A stretch of 45,982 nucleotides of DNA from the UHGV virus genome UHGV-0170246; one strand, written 5' to 3'. Below, piece after piece: positions 5,608 to 45,982 of the stretch. A program made the translations under genes and the position numbers. A model generated the notes under the pieces. That model did no database searches and had not been told where the DNA came from. It saw only the letters and a list, made by a program, of their open reading frames with translations. The DNA comes from a virus. Each line of letters opens with the position of its first letter. The first letter of the stretch is position 1.

Positions 5608-5641
5608 TAAGAGAGAAAAGAGTAAGGGGCCGTAGCCCCTT
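5608..5641 (-). terminator. Rho-independent terminator for the antirepressor gene
   Basis: Hairpin AGGGGC-cgta-GCCCCT just downstream of the stop at 5646; minus strand has a U-rich run after the hairpin. Confidence 0.5.
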
Positions 5642-5645
5642 GTAG

Positions 5646-6791
5646 TTATGGTCTGCTTTTCTGTGCCAGCTTATCAGCACATGTTTTTATCAGATCCTGT
5701 AGTGTCCTGGCTGGCAGGTTTGCATCCAGTACGCTGAGTATGCTGTTGTGTTCTGCTTGGTCGACTACTTTGCCTGTCGGTGGTAGTAGCTTGAGCTGAG
5801 GATTCAGGTTTTCGTCAAAGCTGATAAGTGCTCTGGCGTTTCTGAGCAGATCAAGAAGTAAGGCTGATATCACATTTTCCTGAGTCATTGCTGGCAGACT
5901 TAGCGCCGCTTTGGTTTTCCCTGTTGCCTTGTCAAACTCCTTGATTAGTTCCTTCCTGTAGTTCGGTTCCGTTAATAGCCGATTATGCTCTGTTGCCGCG
6001 CGGATAATCGTTTTTTCCTGGTATAGTCGTTTAGCCAGATCACGCTCGTACTGTGTTTTTAACACGCTGCTGATAGCGTTAAAGGCTTCAATGTAGGCCA
6101 GCTTGATATCTTTCACGCTTGGACCGTCGATGCTCTCCATGAGCAAGGTAAATCCGTCTTTTGTCATGCGATAGATTGTTATTTCGCGGTCGCTTCCTTC
6201 CAGCGGTCGTTGCTCTTTAAAGAAGTGACGCGCCGCAGCTGTGCGAGGAATGCGTAACGCATCGATGGCCATAACGATGGAATTGTTTGTGGTGCTGAAT
6301 GCCTGGGCAACATCGGCTGAGGTTGTGAGTGGCTCGTTGTTGCACACCTTAATGTAATACATTGGTTTAGCGTTGAGCGTATCGACAACCTCACGAGCAT
6401 TGTTTGGTGAGACGGTTACGGTCGCGGCCGTTTGCGCGTTCTGGTTGAAGTAGCAGTCTTCCAGCCGTTCGAATACATCCCACGCCTGATCGGTTTCGAG
6501 CATTTTAGCGTGACGTGCAGCCCCGCGTTCTGTCCAGAGGATGAGGGAGCGGACTTTAGGTGAAACTGGATTTTGAGAGTAGTTTAAAGCTACCCGCAAT
6601 TCTTTAAGGTCATTACCAACAACTTTGAAAAAGTGTTTCCCTTCAACGAAACGTGCTTTGTTCTCATGATGATTCTGGCGAATACGCACCGGCTCAGTGC
6701 CGTAAAGCTGTGCTAGTAACTCGGTAGTAATGACAGGGATTTGGTTATGCAGGATAGGCTGTAGGGTGTTAACGGTCGGAAGCGTTTTCAT
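5646..6791 (-). CDS. Antirepressor-like protein (ORF6N-type N-terminus, Rha-like central region)
   Basis: 381 aa; N-terminal pattern PVITTELLAQLYGTEPVRIRQNHHENKARFVEGKHFFK and internal TTSADVAQAF segment typical of phage Ant/Rha-type regulators (recalled domain patterns). Confidence 0.55.
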   Translation of the reverse strand: MKTLPTVNTLQPILHNQIPVITTELLAQLYGTEPVRIRQNHHENKARFVEGKHFFKVVGNDLKELRVALNYSQNPVSPKVRSLILWTERGAARHAKMLETDQAWDVFERLEDCYFNQNAQTAATVTVSPNNAREVVDTLNAKPMYYIKVCNNEPLTTSADVAQAFSTTNNSIVMAIDALRIPRTAAARHFFKEQRPLEGSDREITIYRMTKDGFTLLMESIDGPSVKDIKLAYIEAFNAISSVLKTQYERDLAKRLYQEKTIIRAATEHNRLLTEPNYRKELIKEFDKATGKTKAALSLPAMTQENVISALLLDLLRNARALISFDENLNPQLKLLPPTGKVVDQAEHNSILSVLDANLPARTLQDLIKTCADKLAQKSRP

Positions 6792-6979
6792 TTTGCACCT
6801 CCCATAACTACTTTGGTTACGAGGGAGATTTTTGCGTCAGAAACAGCGTTATCGTTGCTGGCGATGCGCATAGCTTCGCGCTCGATGATTTCAGCCAGGC
6901 GGAATTTATCGGCGTATGAGGCTTTCTTGAGAAGGATCTTTACGAGGTTGACGTAATAGTCATGGGGTAAGTTTGTCAT
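6788..6979 (-). CDS. Small hypothetical protein, first gene of the antirepressor operon
   Basis: 63-aa ORF; its stop overlaps the antirepressor start (ATGA). Confidence 0.35.
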   Translation of the reverse strand: MTNLPHDYYVNLVKILLKKASYADKFRLAEIIEREAMRIASNDNAVSDAKISLVTKVVMGGAK

Positions 6980-7394
6980 GGTGATAGTTCCCTTAAAGGT
7001 TAAGGATACTCACCACCGTCTGGTTCCAATCATTGGGTGGTGAGACGTACAGGGTTGGAACTACCGGTCACCATGGAATCCGGCGAGTCTTACGACTCCC
7101 CCGCACGCCCCACCATAATTTGGGTGTAGCAGTGCTTTACGCATAAAAAAACCGCTAACGCGGTATGCGCCATGATGATTATCGGGGTTCCAATCCCGAC
7201 CGTAGATTTTGCTACGGCTCGGAAAGTGTCCACCAATGGCGCATTTATGTCAATACAGAGGGATTTTAACAGAGACAACCACATAGCGTGGGTTTATTGG
7301 TAGGCAGAAACAAAAAAACCGCCCTATTGAGGACGGTTCTTTCGTGCTGATCGGATTCGCGGTCCTTTCAGCATAACGTCGTTGTACTAATACA

Positions 7395-7414
7395 ACCACG
7401 CAAGCACAAACAGC
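7395..7414. repeat. Direct repeat copy 1 (ACCACGCAAGCACAAACAGC)
   Basis: 19/20 identical to 7645-7664, about 250 bp downstream, in an ORF-poor region. Confidence 0.6.
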
Positions 7415-7644
7415 AACTACATTCTTACCCAACTGAGGTGAATAGTCCACTATTCATATAAAAAAATTTAGCTCATTAGCTCATGCAAAATGAAGGTTTT
7501 TAACTTATTTACGTGTAATCTCATGTAATAAAAGCGTTTTTTATTCCTTCATTATGAAGGGTATGACGTGTAATATGGCTTGGGGCCTTTCCGCCGATTC
7601 GCACCCGGGCACTGACTTTCAGGAAAGGATTATCCACTTGCCGT

Positions 7645-7664
7645 ACCACGCAGGCACAAACAGC
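7645..7664. repeat. Direct repeat copy 2 (ACCACGCAGGCACAAACAGC)
   Basis: See copy 1. Confidence 0.6.
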
Positions 7665-7728
7665 GTGCTTGCTCTCGCGTCATTTTCGTCGGTGGGGATG
7701 CCGTGAAACGGCCTGTAAGGGCCACACA

Positions 7729-7851
7729 ATGAAAAAATACTACATGTGTATTTTTATCGTTGTTACTGGAGCTTTGTTTACGCCACATGGGGAGGGTTGG
7801 AAGATTACTGATAACGCTCTGAATGTGACGATAAACATTAGCAGCAAGTAG
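7729..7851 (+). CDS. Possible small hydrophobic peptide (40 aa)
   Basis: In-frame ATG of ORF 7669-7851; one predicted transmembrane stretch (YYMCIFIVVTGALF); followed at once by a strong terminator; no recognisable family. Confidence 0.2.
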   Translation: MKKYYMCIFIVVTGALFTPHGEGWKITDNALNVTINISSK

Positions 7852-7856
7852 CGATT

Positions 7857-7880
7857 AGGCCCCTTCGGGGGCCTTTTTTA
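7857..7880 (+). terminator. Rho-independent terminator
   Basis: 7-bp stem AGGCCCC/GGGGCCT with TTCG tetraloop followed by TTTTTT. Confidence 0.75.
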
Positions 7881-8028
7881 CTGCAACCTGCATTTGATAG
7901 CTGTTTACCATTGCAGTAGCTTATATACCGTAAGAGCCACAAGATGTGGTTACGATTTCAATACGGGGTTGATATGAAAAAGCGGTATGACGAATTTGAT
8001 GGTTTCTAAGAGACGTTGACCTCTAATG

Positions 8029-9780: not shown

Positions 9781-9797
9781 AAACCACATAATGTGGT
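9781..9797. promoter_or_regulatory. Operator-like palindrome AACCACATAATGTGGTT
   Basis: Perfect 6-5-6 inverted repeat, same half-sites as 813-829. Confidence 0.55.
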
Positions 9798-9839: not shown

Positions 9840-10496
9840 TCATAACCAGTTGACAACACTAACTACGCGGCCAAGAACTTTATAACGCTTAAATTCCTCG
9901 TTATTCAGATGCTTAGTGTTCATTTCAGCATCCCTTTCGGTTGACAGCATAACAGCATTGTCACCCGGTATGACTCTACAGTGCCTCAAAACAACCAGGC
10001 CATTTCTGTCTTCAAGGGCATAGATCCCCTCATGAATCTCTGTATCGTCTGTATTAATCAGGACTTGGGAGCCAGGGGATATTGTTGGTGACATTAACTC
10101 ATCGTTGCTCTGGAGAACTGACAGAGACGATGGGTTGATGTTCTTGCTTCGTAGAATCTCCTGTTCTATCGCCAGCACTGGCTTTTCTCCGGCGTGCGAT
10201 GCTATGTCATTTTTTATAGCTACAAGCCCAGGAATAACAGGAGCGTTAGTATTCTGGGGTGGGAACGGGTTATCTGTTAAGCACGCGATATAAGGCGCTG
10301 ATGCTTTCAGGGCGTGCGCGATTTTCTTGATGGCAGGTATCGATGGTTGTCTTAATCCGGCCTCATAGTTCTGCAAGGTGCTTAAGCCTATTCCAGTGAC
10401 TTGCTGGAGATCTCCGGCAGTCATGCCGGATTGTTTCCGTAGAGTCTGAATGCGCAGACCTATTTCTTTCTTGATGTTCTCGTCGTTGCTTTTCAT
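9840..10496 (-). CDS. CI-like phage repressor (N-terminal HTH, C-terminal LexA/S24-like domain)
   Basis: 218 aa; HTH TAGDLQQVTGIGLSTLQNYEAG; C-terminal region has the overall S24 pattern but the GxSM catalytic motif is not obvious on hand alignment. Confidence 0.75.
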   Translation of the reverse strand: MKSNDENIKKEIGLRIQTLRKQSGMTAGDLQQVTGIGLSTLQNYEAGLRQPSIPAIKKIAHALKASAPYIACLTDNPFPPQNTNAPVIPGLVAIKNDIASHAGEKPVLAIEQEILRSKNINPSSLSVLQSNDELMSPTISPGSQVLINTDDTEIHEGIYALEDRNGLVVLRHCRVIPGDNAVMLSTERDAEMNTKHLNNEEFKRYKVLGRVVSVVNWL

Positions 10497-10532: not shown

Positions 10533-10652
10533 TACCACATTTAGTGGTTTTCACATGGTAAGACGAGAGGTGGACCACAAATAGAAGGTTATTTTTTGTT
10601 TCGCCCATTGAAAAACTCACGATATGTGGTTTTAATACCACATATCGTGGTT
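10533..10652. promoter_or_regulatory. Immunity-region operator cluster: three palindromes of the ACCAC-N5-GTGGT type
   Basis: TACCACATTTAGTGGTT (10533-10549), ACTCACGATATGTGGTT (10615-10631), TACCACATATCGTGGTT (10636-10652) between the divergent repressor and rightward early genes. Confidence 0.65.
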
Positions 10653-10670: not shown

Positions 10671-11165
10671 ATGACCTTTCAGGAGTGGGTTGACGAAAAT
10701 GGAGGCCAAATTGGTGTTGCCAGAAAGTTTGGCTTTACGTCATCACTGATTGGTGCCTGGTATCGCTTCGAGAGATTCCCTCGTGCGGATAACCTGACGC
10801 TGCTGGTGGCGTATTCGGAAGGCCGGATTAACGTCCAGCAATGGGCGGCAGATTTTGCCGAACGTCAGCGCCAGCGTAGCGATGGCACATCGGTTCGGCA
10901 GAACAAGATCAAAGGGAATCTCCCTGTTAACTGCTTATCAAGGCTGAAAGCGGTTTTCTCTGAGCTGGGGATGCCTGCGGAGCGTTGCAATCTACGCGGT
11001 CCGCGATTCATTGCTCGCTGGAAACACTCACACGTAACCGTTTCAGAGGTTCGTGATGCGATTACCGTGCTGGAGCTTAAGAATAAAGATTCCAGCGATA
11101 TCGAGCTGATTCATAAGGAGATTAGCAACGCCCGGCGTTCAGCACTTGGGAGGCTTGAGGAATGA
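10671..11165 (+). CDS. Putative HTH regulator, first gene of the rightward early operon (Cro/CII position)
   Basis: 164 aa; divergent from the repressor across the operator cluster; function is by position only. Confidence 0.35.
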   Translation: MTFQEWVDENGGQIGVARKFGFTSSLIGAWYRFERFPRADNLTLLVAYSEGRINVQQWAADFAERQRQRSDGTSVRQNKIKGNLPVNCLSRLKAVFSELGMPAERCNLRGPRFIARWKHSHVTVSEVRDAITVLELKNKDSSDIELIHKEISNARRSALGRLEE

Positions 11166-11677
11166 TGATTCTGGCCTTCTTTGGTGATAATCACCAGATT
11201 CAATCGCAGGTGGTGCACTACCTTGATCAAACGATTAAAGGATTTGTTATCGATCATATTGATAACGATAGCAAACATCTATCTGTAGATCAGAAAATTG
11301 GACGTGTGCAGCGACTGGTTGCCAGCCGTAACAGACGTGACACCGTAACAGTAGTCACGGGGATAACGGAGGTCATGGAGTACCAGATGTTGCTGCATCG
11401 TGGAGCTGTTTTCTGCGTTCTTCCTGGCATTCTGCCAGCAATTCTTGCTCGTGGTTTTGTCCCTATTGATGAGTCGTTTTTATATGTAACCCCAAGCCGT
11501 TCCCTTCTGGATACGGAGGCGAAGCGTCGCATTTATATGATGCCGGACGAGGCATTTTCTGAATGTTACCGCCGTGAAATGAGGTTGGGTAAACGAGAAG
11601 TGTCTGTTGTTCGTGATGGCAGGTTTTTAAGAAGCCGCACGGTGAAAAGCACCAGAAATGACGGGGGCCATCAATGA
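11162..11677 (+). CDS. Hypothetical protein
   Basis: 171-aa ORF; ATGA overlap with the upstream gene. Confidence 0.45.
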   Translation: MMILAFFGDNHQIQSQVVHYLDQTIKGFVIDHIDNDSKHLSVDQKIGRVQRLVASRNRRDTVTVVTGITEVMEYQMLLHRGAVFCVLPGILPAILARGFVPIDESFLYVTPSRSLLDTEAKRRIYMMPDEAFSECYRREMRLGKREVSVVRDGRFLRSRTVKSTRNDGGHQ

Positions 11678-11907
11678 GTAGTTATGTTCGCGGTGCTGCG
11701 ATGCATTGCCAGAATCCCCAATTCTGGCGCTTTCTGACCAGTAAAACAGGGAAGAACGTTTCAAACAGTTCTGAGGCCTCTGTGATTCTGCGTGAGTTTT
11801 GCGGGATCTCATCCCGTAAAGAGCTGGCAAAGAACTACGCGGCCAGAAGCATGTATGTCCAGTTAATCAACGAGTTCAACCTCTTTATCAATGGTAAGGG
11901 GCGCTGA
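11674..11907 (+). CDS. Hypothetical protein
   Basis: 77-aa ORF in an operon of overlapping reading frames. Confidence 0.35.
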   Translation: MSSYVRGAAMHCQNPQFWRFLTSKTGKNVSNSSEASVILREFCGISSRKELAKNYAARSMYVQLINEFNLFINGKGR

Positions 11908-12311
11908 TGAACGGACGTACACCAACGAAGAAAGAGAAACTTTATATACAAGCGGTGCTCACTCACGTGGGTTGCATAGCTTGCATTATTGATGGCCGTG
12001 AAATTGAGAATCCAGAGCTGTGGACGGAGCTACATCACGATCCTGATTACGGCAGCGTTGATGAGAATTGCCACTTTCATAGCTTTGGATTGTGCGCACC
12101 ACATCATCGCGGTGTTGTGCCTGGTGGTGGGCGCGTGCCTCCGCATATCGCCGTTCGTCACCCTCCCCTGAGTAATTGTGCTCGCTTTGTTGAGCGTTAT
12201 GGCACCGATGAATTTTTGTGTGCGCAGACGTGGGAGCTGTTGCCGCAGTCAGTTAAAGACGAAATTGGGTTTGATCTTAGTCTTGGTGAAGTACCAGGGG
12301 ATACCAAATGA
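11907..12311 (+). CDS. Putative HNH-type nuclease, Ref-like
   Basis: 134 aa; Cys/His-rich with paired HH motifs (ELHHDPDYG, CAPHHRG) and GCIACI; resemblance to the P1 Ref/DUF968 family is a recalled pattern. Confidence 0.35.
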   Translation: MNGRTPTKKEKLYIQAVLTHVGCIACIIDGREIENPELWTELHHDPDYGSVDENCHFHSFGLCAPHHRGVVPGGGRVPPHIAVRHPPLSNCARFVERYGTDEFLCAQTWELLPQSVKDEIGFDLSLGEVPGDTK

Positions 12312-19728: not shown

Positions 19729-19804
19729 GGCCCCTTAGCTCAGTGGTTAGAGCAGGCGACTCATAATCGCACGGTCATCGGTTCAAATCCGGTAGGGGCC
19801 ACCA
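19729..19804 (+). tRNA. tRNA with anticodon CAU (Met, or Ile2 if lysidine-modified)
   Basis: Hand-folded cloverleaf: 7-bp acceptor stem GGCCCCT/AGGGGCC, D arm, anticodon loop CTCATAA, T arm GGTTCAAATCC, encoded CCA; strongly resembles E. coli ileX as I recall it. Confidence 0.85.
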
Positions 19805-44570: not shown

Positions 44571-45982
44571 GTGAGTAAATTATTATTTACGATGACTGAC
44601 GCCGGGCGTCAGGAGCTGGTTAATGCCAACAAAACAGGAACAAATAAAGTTGAGATTGTTTCTGTTGGTTTAGGTAGTAGATATTATGTCACGTCAACTT
44701 CACAAACAAATATAACAAACGAAATAAAACGACTTACCACAATAGGTGGCAAAGTTGTTTCCCCTGATACAATTCATGTAACAGCGAAGGATGATAGTAA
44801 AGATGAGTATGTTGTCCATACAATAGGATTGTATACGAATAAGGGTACGTTGTTTGCTGTATACTCACAAGAACAAGCAATAATAAATAAAGCATCATCT
44901 ACTATCGCTTTAATATCAAGTGATATAGCAATTAAAACTCTTGATACTAAAAATATTACATTTGGTGATATTGAGTTTATTAATCCTCCCGCGACCGAAA
45001 CTGTTGTTGGGGTGGCAAGATTTGCTAATGAACAAGAAATTGATGCAGGTACAGATGATTCCCTTGCTGTTTCAGCAAAACGGCTTAAGCAAGCCATTGT
45101 GAAACATGAGCAATCACGTAATCATCCTGATGCAACTTTAACCTCAAAAGGCTTTGTTCAACTTAGCAGCGCCACCAATAGCGCGTCTGAAACGCTTGCT
45201 GCGACGCCTAAGGCTGTTAAGGCAGCATATGACCTGGCTAATGCTAAATACACCGCACAGGACGCTACCACAGCGCGAAAAGGGATTGTTCAGCTCAGTA
45301 GTGCCACCAACAGCACGTCTGAAACGCTGGCAGCAACACCAAAGGCTGTTAAGGCAGCGTATGATCTTGCGGCCGGAAAGGCTCCGTCCAATCACACGCA
45401 TTCGTGGGAGCAGATAACAAATGTGCCTGTAGCTTCACTGACTGTAAGGGGAATAACTCAGCTCAGTAGTGCCACCAACAGCACGTCTGAAACACTGGCC
45501 GCGACATCGAAAGCTGTAAAGGTGGTAATGGATGAAACGAACAAGAAAGCGCCCCTGAACAGTCCGGCGCTGACCGGAACACCAACAACACCAACTGCGC
45601 CAAAAGGTACTAACAATACTCAGATCGCAAGCACGGCTTATGTTATGGCTGCGATTGCCGCCCTTGTAGATTCGTCACCTGACGCACTGAATACGCTGAA
45701 CGAGTTAGCGGCGGCGCTGGGAAACGACCCGAATTTTGCGACCACCATGACTAACGCGCTTGCGGGTAAGCAACCGAAAGATGCCACCCTGACGGCGCTG
45801 GCCGGGCTTGCTACTGCGGCAGACAGGTTTCCGTATTTTACGGGGAATGATGTCGCCAGCCTGGCAACTCTGACAAAAGTCGGGCGGGATATTCTTGCGA
45901 AATCGACCGTTGCCGCCGTTATCGAATACCTCGGTTTGCAGGAAACGATAAACAAGGCTTCTGGCGCATTACAGAAAAACCA
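44571..45982 (+). CDS. Tail fibre protein (P2 gpH / Mu S-like constant part), 3'-truncated by the window edge
   Basis: GTG start; open frame to the window end, absent from the ORF track because there is no stop; three tandem fibre repeats; reading frame runs through the gix-like site at 45919-45944. Confidence 0.8.
   Translation, partial: MSKLLFTMTDAGRQELVNANKTGTNKVEIVSVGLGSRYYVTSTSQTNITNEIKRLTTIGGKVVSPDTIHVTAKDDSKDEYVVHTIGLYTNKGTLFAVYSQEQAIINKASSTIALISSDIAIKTLDTKNITFGDIEFINPPATETVVGVARFANEQEIDAGTDDSLAVSAKRLKQAIVKHEQSRNHPDATLTSKGFVQLSSATNSASETLAATPKAVKAAYDLANAKYTAQDATTARKGIVQLSSATNSTSETLAATPKAVKAAYDLAAGKAPSNHTHSWEQITNVPVASLTVRGITQLSSATNSTSETLAATSKAVKVVMDETNKKAPLNSPALTGTPTTPTAPKGTNNTQIASTAYVMAAIAALVDSSPDALNTLNELAAALGNDPNFATTMTNALAGKQPKDATLTALAGLATAADRFPYFTGNDVASLATLTKVGRDILAKSTVAAVIEYLGLQETINKASGALQKN
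45150..45535 (+). repeat. Three tandem ~90-bp coding repeats inside the tail fibre gene (GxVQLSSATNSxSETLAATPKAVKAAYDLA)
   Basis: Read directly at ~45150-45242, 45280-45372 and 45446-45535. Confidence 0.8.
45919..45944. other. gix/cix-like crossover site (TTATCGAATACCTCGGTTTGCAGGAA), inverted partner of 39-64
   Basis: About 23/26 identical to the Mu gix site as recalled; lies inside the tail fibre reading frame. Confidence 0.7.

Follow-up and report, generated by a model that had tools for sequence, protein, structure and literature searches.

What controls the antirepressor-like gene of the virus genome UHGV-0170246? The stretch analyzed here, 45,982 nucleotides (nt) of this genome and called the window below, carries on its minus strand two overlapping genes: a conserved open reading frame (ORF) of 63 amino acids (aa), ORF63, and ant, which encodes a 381-aa antirepressor-like protein. 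An earlier note, made from the sequence alone, had described both ORFs exactly as we find them and had proposed the region upstream, with its inverted repeats, as a candidate for a switch that holds antirepressor expression off through small antisense RNAs or a secondary repressor. This proposal is supported by matches to the RNA families C4 and isrK in that region, by co-varying complementarities between the RNAs, by Ant/Rha-type domains in the protein, and by a probable operator. The feature is very probably a P1-immI-type RNA immunity cassette placed before an unrelated antirepressor, and C4, with its decoy and target sites, most likely keeps the antirepressor silent in lysogeny. The proposed regulator is a small RNA, as foreseen, but of another kind than a convergent antisense transcript: C4 is encoded in the sense-strand leader of its own operon and would act in trans. 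The switch belongs to a known kind (P1 immI, N15, Gifsy-1 isrK), and its mechanism, known since the work on P1, is unchanged here.

The leader RNAs and the genes they precede

An Rfam scan of the whole window returned four matches above curated thresholds, among them C4 and isrK, both immediately before ORF63 and on its strand. C4 (RF01695) matched at 7033–7120 with 84.3 bits against a threshold of 45 (E = 2.9e-15) over model positions 1–87 of 87. The isrK family (RF01394) matched at full length with 70.2 bits against a threshold of 50, model position 1 aligning to 7218. When the whole window was scanned at gathering scores, the c4-a1b1 model (RF03163) stayed below its threshold; in a scan that cut the element at 7200, it scored 14.4 bits against a threshold of 46.7. 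In the direction of transcription, the elements of the operon are:

7279–7291, strand not assigned: operator-like palindrome CCAC-N5-GTGG (CCACGCTATGTGG on the minus strand), ~61–73 nt upstream of the isrK 5′ end
7263–7271, minus: candidate upstream promoter P2, read from the sequence as an extended −10 element, TGT-TAAAAT
7225–7253, minus: putative proximal promoter, TTGACA (7253–7248), 17 nt, GACACT (7230–7225), 6 nt, G7218, placed by positional homology
7145–7218, minus: isrK-type leader RNA with the segments a1 and b1
7036–7114, minus: predicted mature C4-type antisense RNA of 79 nt, its ends set by analogy with the annotated 77-nt P1 c4
7009–7044, minus: hairpin flagged in the earlier note, the C4 3′ strand CUCACCACC (7044–7036) with the arm GGUGGUGAG (7017–7009) and a2 in the 18-nt loop
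7023–7029, minus: predicted target a2, UUGGAAC, a perfect 7-nt complement of a′ that starts 7 nt past the predicted C4 3′ end, as in P1
6986–7010, minus: hairpin holding the ORF63 Shine-Dalgarno (SD) sequence UAAGGGA (6995–6989), predicted computationally from repeat I3 and a constrained fold
6977–6984, minus: predicted target b2, UCACCAUG, a perfect 8-nt complement of b′ (repeat I9, 6977–6984 / 7068–7075) that covers the ORF63 start codon
6788–6979, minus: ORF63, a conserved 63-aa protein in the slot of icd in P1; its stop overlaps the ant start by ATGA
6798–6828, minus: ant SD GGGAGG (6803–6798) paired with UCUCCCU (6828–6822) inside ORF63, predicted in the minimum free energy (MFE) fold of 6900–6750
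5646–6791, minus: ant, a 381-aa antirepressor-like protein with ORF6N, Rha, and an uncharacterized C-terminal third
5614–5641, minus: terminator-like hairpin closing the operon, 4 nt past the ant stop, with a stem at 5641–5624 (7 pairs) and a T-rich tail

The C4 RNA folds into a long GU-rich closing stem around two hairpins, and its MFE and centroid structures coincide (−44.3 kcal/mol, z = −3.6). Hairpin 2, which appeared as inverted repeat I2 in the repeat search of the region, presents b′ (CAUGGUGA, 7075–7068) inside its 12-nt loop, and a′ (GUUCCAA, 7061–7055) lies in the single-stranded junction. Hairpin 1 is preserved by compensating variation: 58 distinct C4 sequences contain 13 arm pairs, ten of them fully complementary (5/5) and three, all singletons, at 4/5. 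Upstream, isrK holds a1 (UUGGAAC, 7193–7187) in a hairpin loop and b1 (UCAUCAUGG, 7178–7170), and ends in a terminator-like hairpin with its stem at 7164–7151 and a U7 run reaching 7145. A separate 9-nt perfect complementarity, AUGCGCCAU / AUGGCGCAU (7236–7244 / 7165–7173, repeat I5), links the proximal-promoter spacer with the b1/terminator flank; it is relevant only to transcripts from the upstream candidate promoter, in which it could alter folding of the terminator or of b1.

A profile search, named by the earlier note as the check on its Ant assignment, found two Pfam domains of the kind expected in the 381-aa protein: ORF6N at residues 12–97 (3e-20; 72.7 bits against a cut-off of 27.8) and Phage_pRha at residues 156–240 (1.8e-12; 48.1 bits against 29.9). 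At full length the protein matches PHROG 8244, and its N-terminus matches several anti-repressor PHROGs (1.8e-64 to 1e-30); over its first 150 residues it shares 53% identity with Gifsy-1 AnrP (E = 1e-48). BLASTP against P1 Ant1 gave no similarity (best E-value 6.6), nor did comparison with N15 gp30, and among the sequences of solved structures in the Protein Data Bank (PDB) there was no match.

The sequence record of ORF63 is that of a real conserved protein. Its homologues form 39 clusters, mostly of exactly 63 aa, in six genera (Escherichia, Salmonella, Klebsiella, Yersinia, Hafnia, and Erwinia), with a ratio of nonsynonymous to synonymous substitution (dN/dS) of 0.06–0.14 at near-saturated synonymous divergence; in species-representative genomes it was found at just two loci. 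PHROG places it in phrog_7886, of unknown function. The predicted model is a confident three-helix bundle (predicted local distance difference test, pLDDT, of 79) that had no structural relatives in the PDB or in a viral model library. BLASTP produced no alignment with P1 Icd, no Icd-like NCBIfam or Pfam family matched, and no similarity to N15 gp31 or gp32 was seen.

ORF63 and the RNA cassette also occur together. Each of the 17 loci retrieved with ORF63 alone has a C4-type RNA ending ~50 nt upstream, which is Rfam C4 in 12 and the look-alike sRNA-Xcc1 in the five most divergent; isrK is present in 13 of the 17, and 12 of these 13 carry the Rfam C4 type. The next gene follows at an ATGA overlap in 15/17, and what it encodes varies: an ORF6N-type protein with different C-termini, a KilA-N-like protein, or a Rha-like protein. 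At least five a′/b′ combinations occur among the ORF63 operons.

Several loci merit description in their own right. The sRNA-Xcc1 family (Rfam RF02221, 69–76 bits) fills the C4 position in L128, L139, L140, and L142 (~2376–2464) and in L141 (1614–1698). These loci have pairs of the same layout, b′/b2 being UCUCACUGA / UCAGUGAGG at the SD and a′/a2 being UUUCGAA / UUCGAAA, and sRNA-Xcc1 appears to be of the same functional class as C4 though outside the C4 clan. One viral contig, L115, has two tandem modules of C4 and an ORF6N-type ant (at 2411 and 3416, ~1 kb apart) that share the b′ loop and differ in their a′ junctions (AGUUCCAA and AGUGCAAA), each with its own a2 match. In some relatives (proteins P0001 and P0008), gene callers stretch ORF63 upstream to 95 aa, and residues 2–39 of the extended product match PF10554, the “Ash protein family”, with 26.1 bits against a threshold of 26. 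This extension is a translation of the C4 3′ half and the leader, and the start of N15 gene 32 (L144:28082–28372) likewise falls inside the C4 match. PF10554 looks like, at least in part, a protein model built on an RNA gene.

Contacts between the RNAs and the flagged hairpin

An exact search of viral contigs for the conserved C4 5′ strand yielded 120 loci, of which 40 distinct ones were tabulated; P1-type loci lie outside this table and were compared by eye and in the stem analysis. A perfect a′/a2 7-mer is present in 40/40 loci, with 11 different a′ sequences, and a2 always begins 6–9 nt after C4. The a1 match lies 72–85 nt upstream and is a perfect 7-mer in 39/40 loci (a 6-mer in L116). When a′ and a2 from different loci were combined, 0.08% of comparisons reached ≥6 nt. 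The b′/b2 contact behaves in the same way: across 28 distinct loops, mean complementarity is 8.5 nt for self pairs versus 4.9 nt for non-self pairs. The b2 site, which covers the ORF63 start codon in the window, lies on or beside the SD in every other locus examined.

The sharpest case is the comparison with the plasmid of Escherichia coli ATCC 25922. The two sequences share ~96% identity in this region but have different b′, b1, and b2, and each set matches itself: CCAUGGUGA / UCAUCAUGG / UCACCAUG in the window and GUCAUUGUG / ACACAAUGG / CACAAUGAC in the plasmid. As a sequence pattern, this joint change between sister plasmids is a signature of RNA-defined heteroimmunity, as between P1 and P7. 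Sister plasmids should accordingly fall into RNA-defined classes (at least five a′/b′ combinations) that decide induction or exclusion between elements, and such predicted immunity classes bear on plasmid and prophage compatibility and spread. An additional a-type site beside b2, GGAACUA at 6991–6985, which would make a contiguous 15-nt target, was considered and rejected as a selected feature, because L129 keeps GGAACUA despite a different a′.

Overall, structure in the region far exceeds chance, as judged from the fold of the 263-nt leader (z = −4.5) and from the excess of terminator-like sites (14 versus 3.3 expected). The inverted repeat singled out by the earlier note, CTCACCACC / GGTGGTGAG, is exact at 7009–7017 / 7036–7044 (repeat I4; 9 nt, 100% complementary, 18 nt apart). 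Taken alone it is borderline, marginally beyond chance, since 4.3% of dinucleotide shuffles of 6980–7450 contain a perfect stem of ≥9 bp with a loop of 3–30; its recurrence in relatives is what gives it meaning. The description of the repeats as nested applies loosely at best: the outer repeat stands, and the inner stem has 2 bp in the window and is no better than shuffled interiors (mean z = −0.5). Nor is the repeat the core of the regulator, although it does belong to the structured region. It joins one strand of C4 to a downstream arm: the 5′ arm of the hairpin is the final 9 nt of C4, including 7 nt of the closing stem, and the hairpin and the base of that stem are mutually exclusive.

Among 34 aligned loci, 86.9% of cells in the hairpin pair, versus 30–60% when the partner is slid, with no compensatory change at any pair of the outer stem. 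RNAalifold returned no structure from the 34 aligned hairpin segments, in which loop length varies and P1-types are out of register. In P1-type loci the arms differ and are nevertheless complementary (CCUGCCACC / GGUAGCAGG, 8/9 pairs), and the Xcc1-type loci have just a 5-bp tail hairpin, ACCAC / GUGGU (ACCAU / AUGGU in one locus).

The proposed circuit and competing explanations

The geometry of the proximal promoter equals that of the annotated P1 promoter P1c4 (TTGACC-17-TATAGT-6-G of GUCGUAGC). The −10 of the upstream candidate P2, conserved in family members, lies 38 nt upstream of the proximal −10, against a spacing of 40 nt between the tandem promoters P2c4 and P1c4 in P1. The palindrome at 7279–7291 overlaps the −35 position of P2 and marks a probable operator of the operon; a search for repressor binding sites had been suggested by the earlier note. 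Seven copies of CCAC-N5-GTGG are present in the window versus 0.35 expected (20-fold), and 0/100 shuffles reach seven:

815–827, 7279–7291, 7937–7949, 9784–9796, 10535–10547, 10638–10650, and 44737–44749: perfect copies of (A)CCAC-N5-GTGG(TT)
10618–10631: imperfect copy in the CI-like divergent region

All sites are intergenic. They include one ahead of a 330-aa ORF that begins at 855 and may encode RepA, one perfect copy ahead of the ORF124–parA operon, and the copies at 10535 and 10638 (perfect) and 10618 (imperfect) in the divergent region beside a gene for a 218-aa CI/LexA-like protein (9840–10496). This protein has HTH_3 and a weak Peptidase_S24 match (18.4 bits, below cut-off), and its gene is divergent from a rightward operon (10671–12311); it is likely the primary prophage repressor, possibly SOS-cleavable. 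The dispersed palindromes look like the operator set of one global repressor, as in P1. Every family member has the 7279–7291 site at this position, and unrelated carriers of the cassette lack it; by its sequence and position it is a good candidate for an operator of the main repressor, like Op51 in P1.

From these elements we propose the following circuit. Transcription would begin at ~7218 from the promoter at ~7253–7225, possibly also from the operator-overlapped promoter upstream. Most transcripts would stop at the intrinsic terminator at 7164–7145, giving a ~74-nt isrK-type RNA that displays a1 and b1. Transcripts that read through would contain the tRNA-like C4, which by analogy with P1 would be excised as a stable ~79-nt RNA, with RNase P making the 5′ cut. 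Acting in trans on the mRNA of its own operon, C4 would pair through a′ with a2 and through b′ with b2 over the ORF63 start codon, and ribosomes could then not start ORF63. The predicted masking of the ant SD within ORF63 offers a structural basis for translational coupling between the two genes; because the ant ribosome-binding site (RBS) is masked inside ORF63 and the genes overlap by ATGA, no Ant would be made unless ORF63 is translated. The untranslated message would be subject to Rho termination, as in P1. The short isrK RNA, carrying the target mimics a1 and b1, could titrate C4, and a burst from the promoter, for example when the main repressor leaves its CCAC-N5-GTGG operator, would flip the circuit on. 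Ant would then inactivate or bypass the CI-like prophage repressor, the 218-aa protein being its presumed target.

Several observations weigh against this account. The proximal −10, GACACT, is weak (3/6 consensus), and a consensus promoter scan returned none on the operon strand, so that neither candidate was called. Duplex energies in the window are just modestly better than those of shuffled targets (p ~ 0.02–0.08); support for the contacts rests on co-variation across loci. What is proposed for C4 processing, for the RNA ends, and for the direction of regulation comes by analogy from P1, N15, and Gifsy-1, and Ant is named an antirepressor by homology. Strong purifying selection on ORF63 implies more than a passive leader ORF. 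The Gifsy-1 authors attribute to IsrK a direct effect on mRNA structure instead of a decoy role toward C4, and when isrK was co-expressed constitutively with orf45 (the STnc1160 region), the IsrK growth arrest became more pronounced, not weaker (PMC4825925), a poor fit to a simple picture of repressor titration.

One possibility would extend the cassette explanation and not exclude it: the flagged hairpin may be the core of a four-segment conformational switch, made of the C4 5′ strand (segment 1), the C4 3′ strand (segment 2), the arm GGUGGUGAG (segment 3), and the RBS (segment 4). In the OFF state, 1:2 would form C4 and 3:4 would bury the ORF63 RBS; in the ON state, a1 and b1 would pair with a′ and b′ in cis or in trans, C4 would unfold, 2:3 would form with a2 in the loop, and the RBS would be free. 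We regard this as plausible, though less likely than not. The energies of the full 259-nt leader favor it: a fold with a forced C4 stem (−98.1 kcal/mol) is nearly isoenergetic with the alternative (−99.2 kcal/mol), itself the MFE structure. The alternative has a1/b1 paired in cis with a′/b′, the flagged hairpin formed, and the RBS unpaired; in the C4 fold, the arm is instead paired to AUCACC at the RBS, extending the SD hairpin through GGUGGU (7017–7012) and AUCACC (6985–6980), before and partly in the start codon. When C4 and the hairpin are considered alone, however, the C4 fold is favored by 3.4 kcal/mol. Modeled RBS accessibility rises in the presence of the competing C4 3′ strand from 0.26 to 0.47 in the window and from 0.35 to 0.43 over 45 loci (0.35 with a scrambled strand), although the effect is absent or reversed in P1-type and many Rha-type loci and, as the loci are not phylogenetically independent, the p-values are inflated. 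The arm is conserved in 34/34 aligned lambdoid-type loci with pairing in 87% of cells, and the P1-type arms keep complementarity through different sequences; yet the lack of a compensatory outer-stem pair in the aligned set means that conserved sequence alone explains the pairing there, and the inner-stem and RNAalifold results lend the switch no support. On native gels the Gifsy-1 leader RNA does separate into two conformers that differ in translational activity (PMC4825925). After excision of C4, though, segment 2 would be gone from the mRNA.

The remaining alternatives concern what the RNAs do and what the region encodes. C4-type RNA might act mainly through premature termination in the leader and not through a block of ORF63 translation, which we consider improbable. 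Termination control is described for the “CA RNA” of the N15 anti-immunity region (genes 32-31-30). C4, c4-a1b1, and relatives share one Rfam clan, and C4 pairing with b1 could modulate the efficiency of the strong adjacent terminator that ends isrK. According to the Gifsy-1 authors, the P4 CI RNA pairs with seqA and seqC to cause termination, and IsrK is a structural homologue of SeqA (PMC4825925). Against this, b2 sits on the start codon in the window and on or near the SD elsewhere, the placement predicted by a translational block; no U-tract follows the a2 hairpin, and no other intrinsic terminator lies between C4 and ORF63. In Gifsy-1, an IsrK-dependent rise of transcriptional fusions was seen, but at 8-fold it is far below the 139-fold translational effect (PMC4825925). 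A different doubt attaches to the output: the 381-aa protein may be a KilA-N/ORF6N and Rha DNA-binding regulator that switches lytic genes directly and is not a strict antirepressor, which would leave the RNA control unchanged and which we judge somewhat unlikely. ORF6N and Rha are annotated as regulatory or DNA-binding, several PHROG matches are labeled transcriptional regulator, and the protein shows no kinship to P1 Ant1 or N15 gp30 and no match to a solved structure; AnrP, the closest relative to have been studied, raised antQ expression and induced the prophage in Gifsy-1, though the study left the mechanism open (PMC4825925). Anti-repressor families nevertheless head the PHROG matches of the N-terminus, and the gene fills the place of ant in a cassette that in P1 governs proven antirepressors. 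That the upstream region encodes small proteins and not RNAs (a 64-aa ORF at 7090–7284, a 66-aa ORF at 7250–7450, or an “Ash family” protein) is highly improbable. Open frames do exist, the extended ORF63 of relatives touches the Ash threshold, and a 45-codon frame through C4 was reported as translated in Gifsy-1 (PMC4825925). However, the ORFs at 7090–7284 and 7250–7450 have no Pfam match and are overlapped by RNA family matches with strong structure scores, and the frame from the AUG on the C4 5′ edge closes after eight codons in the window. Variation between loci keeps base pairing and inter-RNA complementarity, not a reading frame; for orf45 itself, the Gifsy-1 authors found the nucleotide sequence conserved and the amino-acid sequence not (as reported in PMC12197685).

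A broader synthesis can be offered tentatively. The leader may be a bistable three-RNA circuit (isrK as decoy, C4 as repressor, a2/b2 as target) in which the C4 fold and an open ORF63 RBS are made exclusive by the flagged hairpin, with IsrK and P1 c4 as halves of one portable device with interchangeable cargo. ORF63 might also be an effector of its own, host-directed for instance, like Icd in role: its strong purifying selection and its constant association with the RNA cassette, whatever the cargo, would fit more than a mere coupling ORF.

The plasmid family, its neighboring module, and known systems

By database comparison, the window is a member of a ~46–50 kb phage-plasmid family from E. 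coli, E. albertii, Salmonella, and Yersinia. Over this stretch it is 97.7% identical to Yersinia phage vB_YpM_39, and 52 PLSDB plasmids cover ≥80% of it, including the 48.5-kb plasmid of ATCC 25922; genes for a contractile tail and a lambda-like head, together with those for RepA and ParA, are present in one close relative. The records of relatives that were examined label the two ORFs “hypothetical”, “ORF6N domain-containing”, or “Rha family” and annotate neither C4 nor isrK. The present reading offers a functional interpretation of a stretch annotated so far only as “hypothetical protein” in a widespread phage-plasmid family that includes the plasmid of a reference strain.

Many relatives, including the ATCC 25922 plasmid and vB_YpM_39/41/44, have an extra cassette of 670–790 bp that the window lacks. 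This cassette (L001:3051–3950, L003:3083–3830) comprises a divergent HTH_3 gene (179–190 aa) and a repeat-rich spacer with AAGTTCC-type motifs, and its insertion point is clean, between the terminator of a TimR-like RNA (see below) and the ant-operon operator (window junction ~7296–7312). The cassette could provide the ant promoter with a second repressor of its own.

Adjoining the ant operon, at 7311–7879, is a pair resembling a type I toxin–antitoxin system, listed here with a tRNA gene located elsewhere in the window:

~7450–7311, minus: TimR-like divergent small RNA, terminator-ended
7581–7879, plus: ryfA RNA (Rfam, 134.6 bits)
7729–7851, plus: TimP-like hydrophobic 40-aa ORF (MKKYYMCIFIVVTGALF...), inside ryfA
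19729–19801, plus: tRNA gene (Rfam tRNA, 67 bits)

The TimR-like RNA contains a 21-nt run (7415–7395) complementary to ryfA 7645–7665, longer than any run in 200 shuffles (maximum 18). Applied to the long TimR-like and ryfA RNAs, RNAduplex did not discriminate, as shuffled sequences reached similar energies. The interval 6980–7450, in which the earlier note would have transcripts mapped, divides: its lower part belongs to the ant leader, and above ~7310 it runs through the TimR-like RNA of the ryfA/TimP pair.

A close parallel in layout is P1/P7 immI. The P1 reference record gives the order C1 operator, two tandem promoters, a1, b1, c4, a2, b2, icd, ant1, with an ATGA overlap of icd and ant1; the window shares the order and spacing of elements, a C4 of the same Rfam family with the first 17 nt (AATTATGGTGGGGCGTG) identical, b2 at the RBS of a small ORF, and the ATGA overlap. 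A repressor operator lies at the upstream promoter position in both (Op51 in P1, CCAC-N5-GTGG here), and specificity variants change the loop and its targets jointly, P1 versus P7 as within the window family. P1 differs in that Icd and Ant1 are unrelated to ORF63 and Ant, in that b2 lies on the SD where the window b2 covers the start codon, and in the leader, where only c4-a1b1 scores; the window leader scores as isrK and ends in an intrinsic terminator. The operator sequence differs too, and presumably the repressor (C1 in P1, a CI/LexA type in the window). N15, a phage-plasmid like the window, has on one strand isrK (62 bits), C4 (79 bits), small ORFs, and the antirepressor gene 30, as found by direct scan. 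Its small ORFs are two and both unrelated to ORF63, its Ant is unrelated, and it is linear, with a protelomerase and a lambda-like tail, in contrast to the circular-type replicon with RepA/ParA and a contractile tail in the window.

Other systems share the principle with a different outcome or arrangement. As proposed for the window C4, the P4 CI RNA is a small RNA processed from the leader of its own operon that pairs with sites upstream and downstream of itself, but the outcome is transcription termination controlling replication genes and not a block of antirepressor translation (PMC4825925). In P22 sar/ant, a small RNA blocks initiation of antirepressor translation in lysogeny; sar, however, is a true cis-antisense RNA from the opposite strand, whereas the window C4 lies on the strand of its target and would act through short loop–target complementarities (PMC12197685).

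Gifsy-1 supplies the experimental link. Rfam places isrK (L005:2399–2475) and then C4 (2501–2584) in the same order as in the window, and the C4 position is that of STnc1160, a stable processed RNA downstream of IsrK (PMC4825925). There, anrP is expressed from the isrK promoter. The IsrK terminator halts most transcripts, and the mRNA that extends past it is translationally silent; short IsrK, which binds Hfq, activates it in trans, allowing translation of an upstream ORF that is coupled to, and needed for, anrP (PMC4825925). The published compensatory pairs G28A/C162U and G31A/C159U (PMC4825925) fall, on our reading of the sequence, in a1 (UUGGCGU) and a′ (ACGCCAA), pairing as predicted; because these mutants map onto a1 and a′, the a1–a′ contact is experimentally validated in a homologous cassette. 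Gifsy-1 differs in that its coupled orf45 is read through C4 itself, where the window has a separate conserved ORF63 between C4 and ant; in that AnrP has 187 aa and no counterpart to the Rha and C-terminal parts of the window Ant; and in being an integrated lambdoid prophage with AntQ as its output. Its authors compared the system to the P4 CI RNA, not to P1 c4 (PMC4825925), and a 2025 review treats IsrK and c4 as separate items (PMC12197685). Since ORF63 and Ant are unrelated to the proteins of P1 or N15, the RNA cassette appears to be portable and its cargo interchangeable, and the window thereby links Gifsy-1 IsrK, P1 c4, and the N15 region as one portable RNA cassette with swappable protein cargo.

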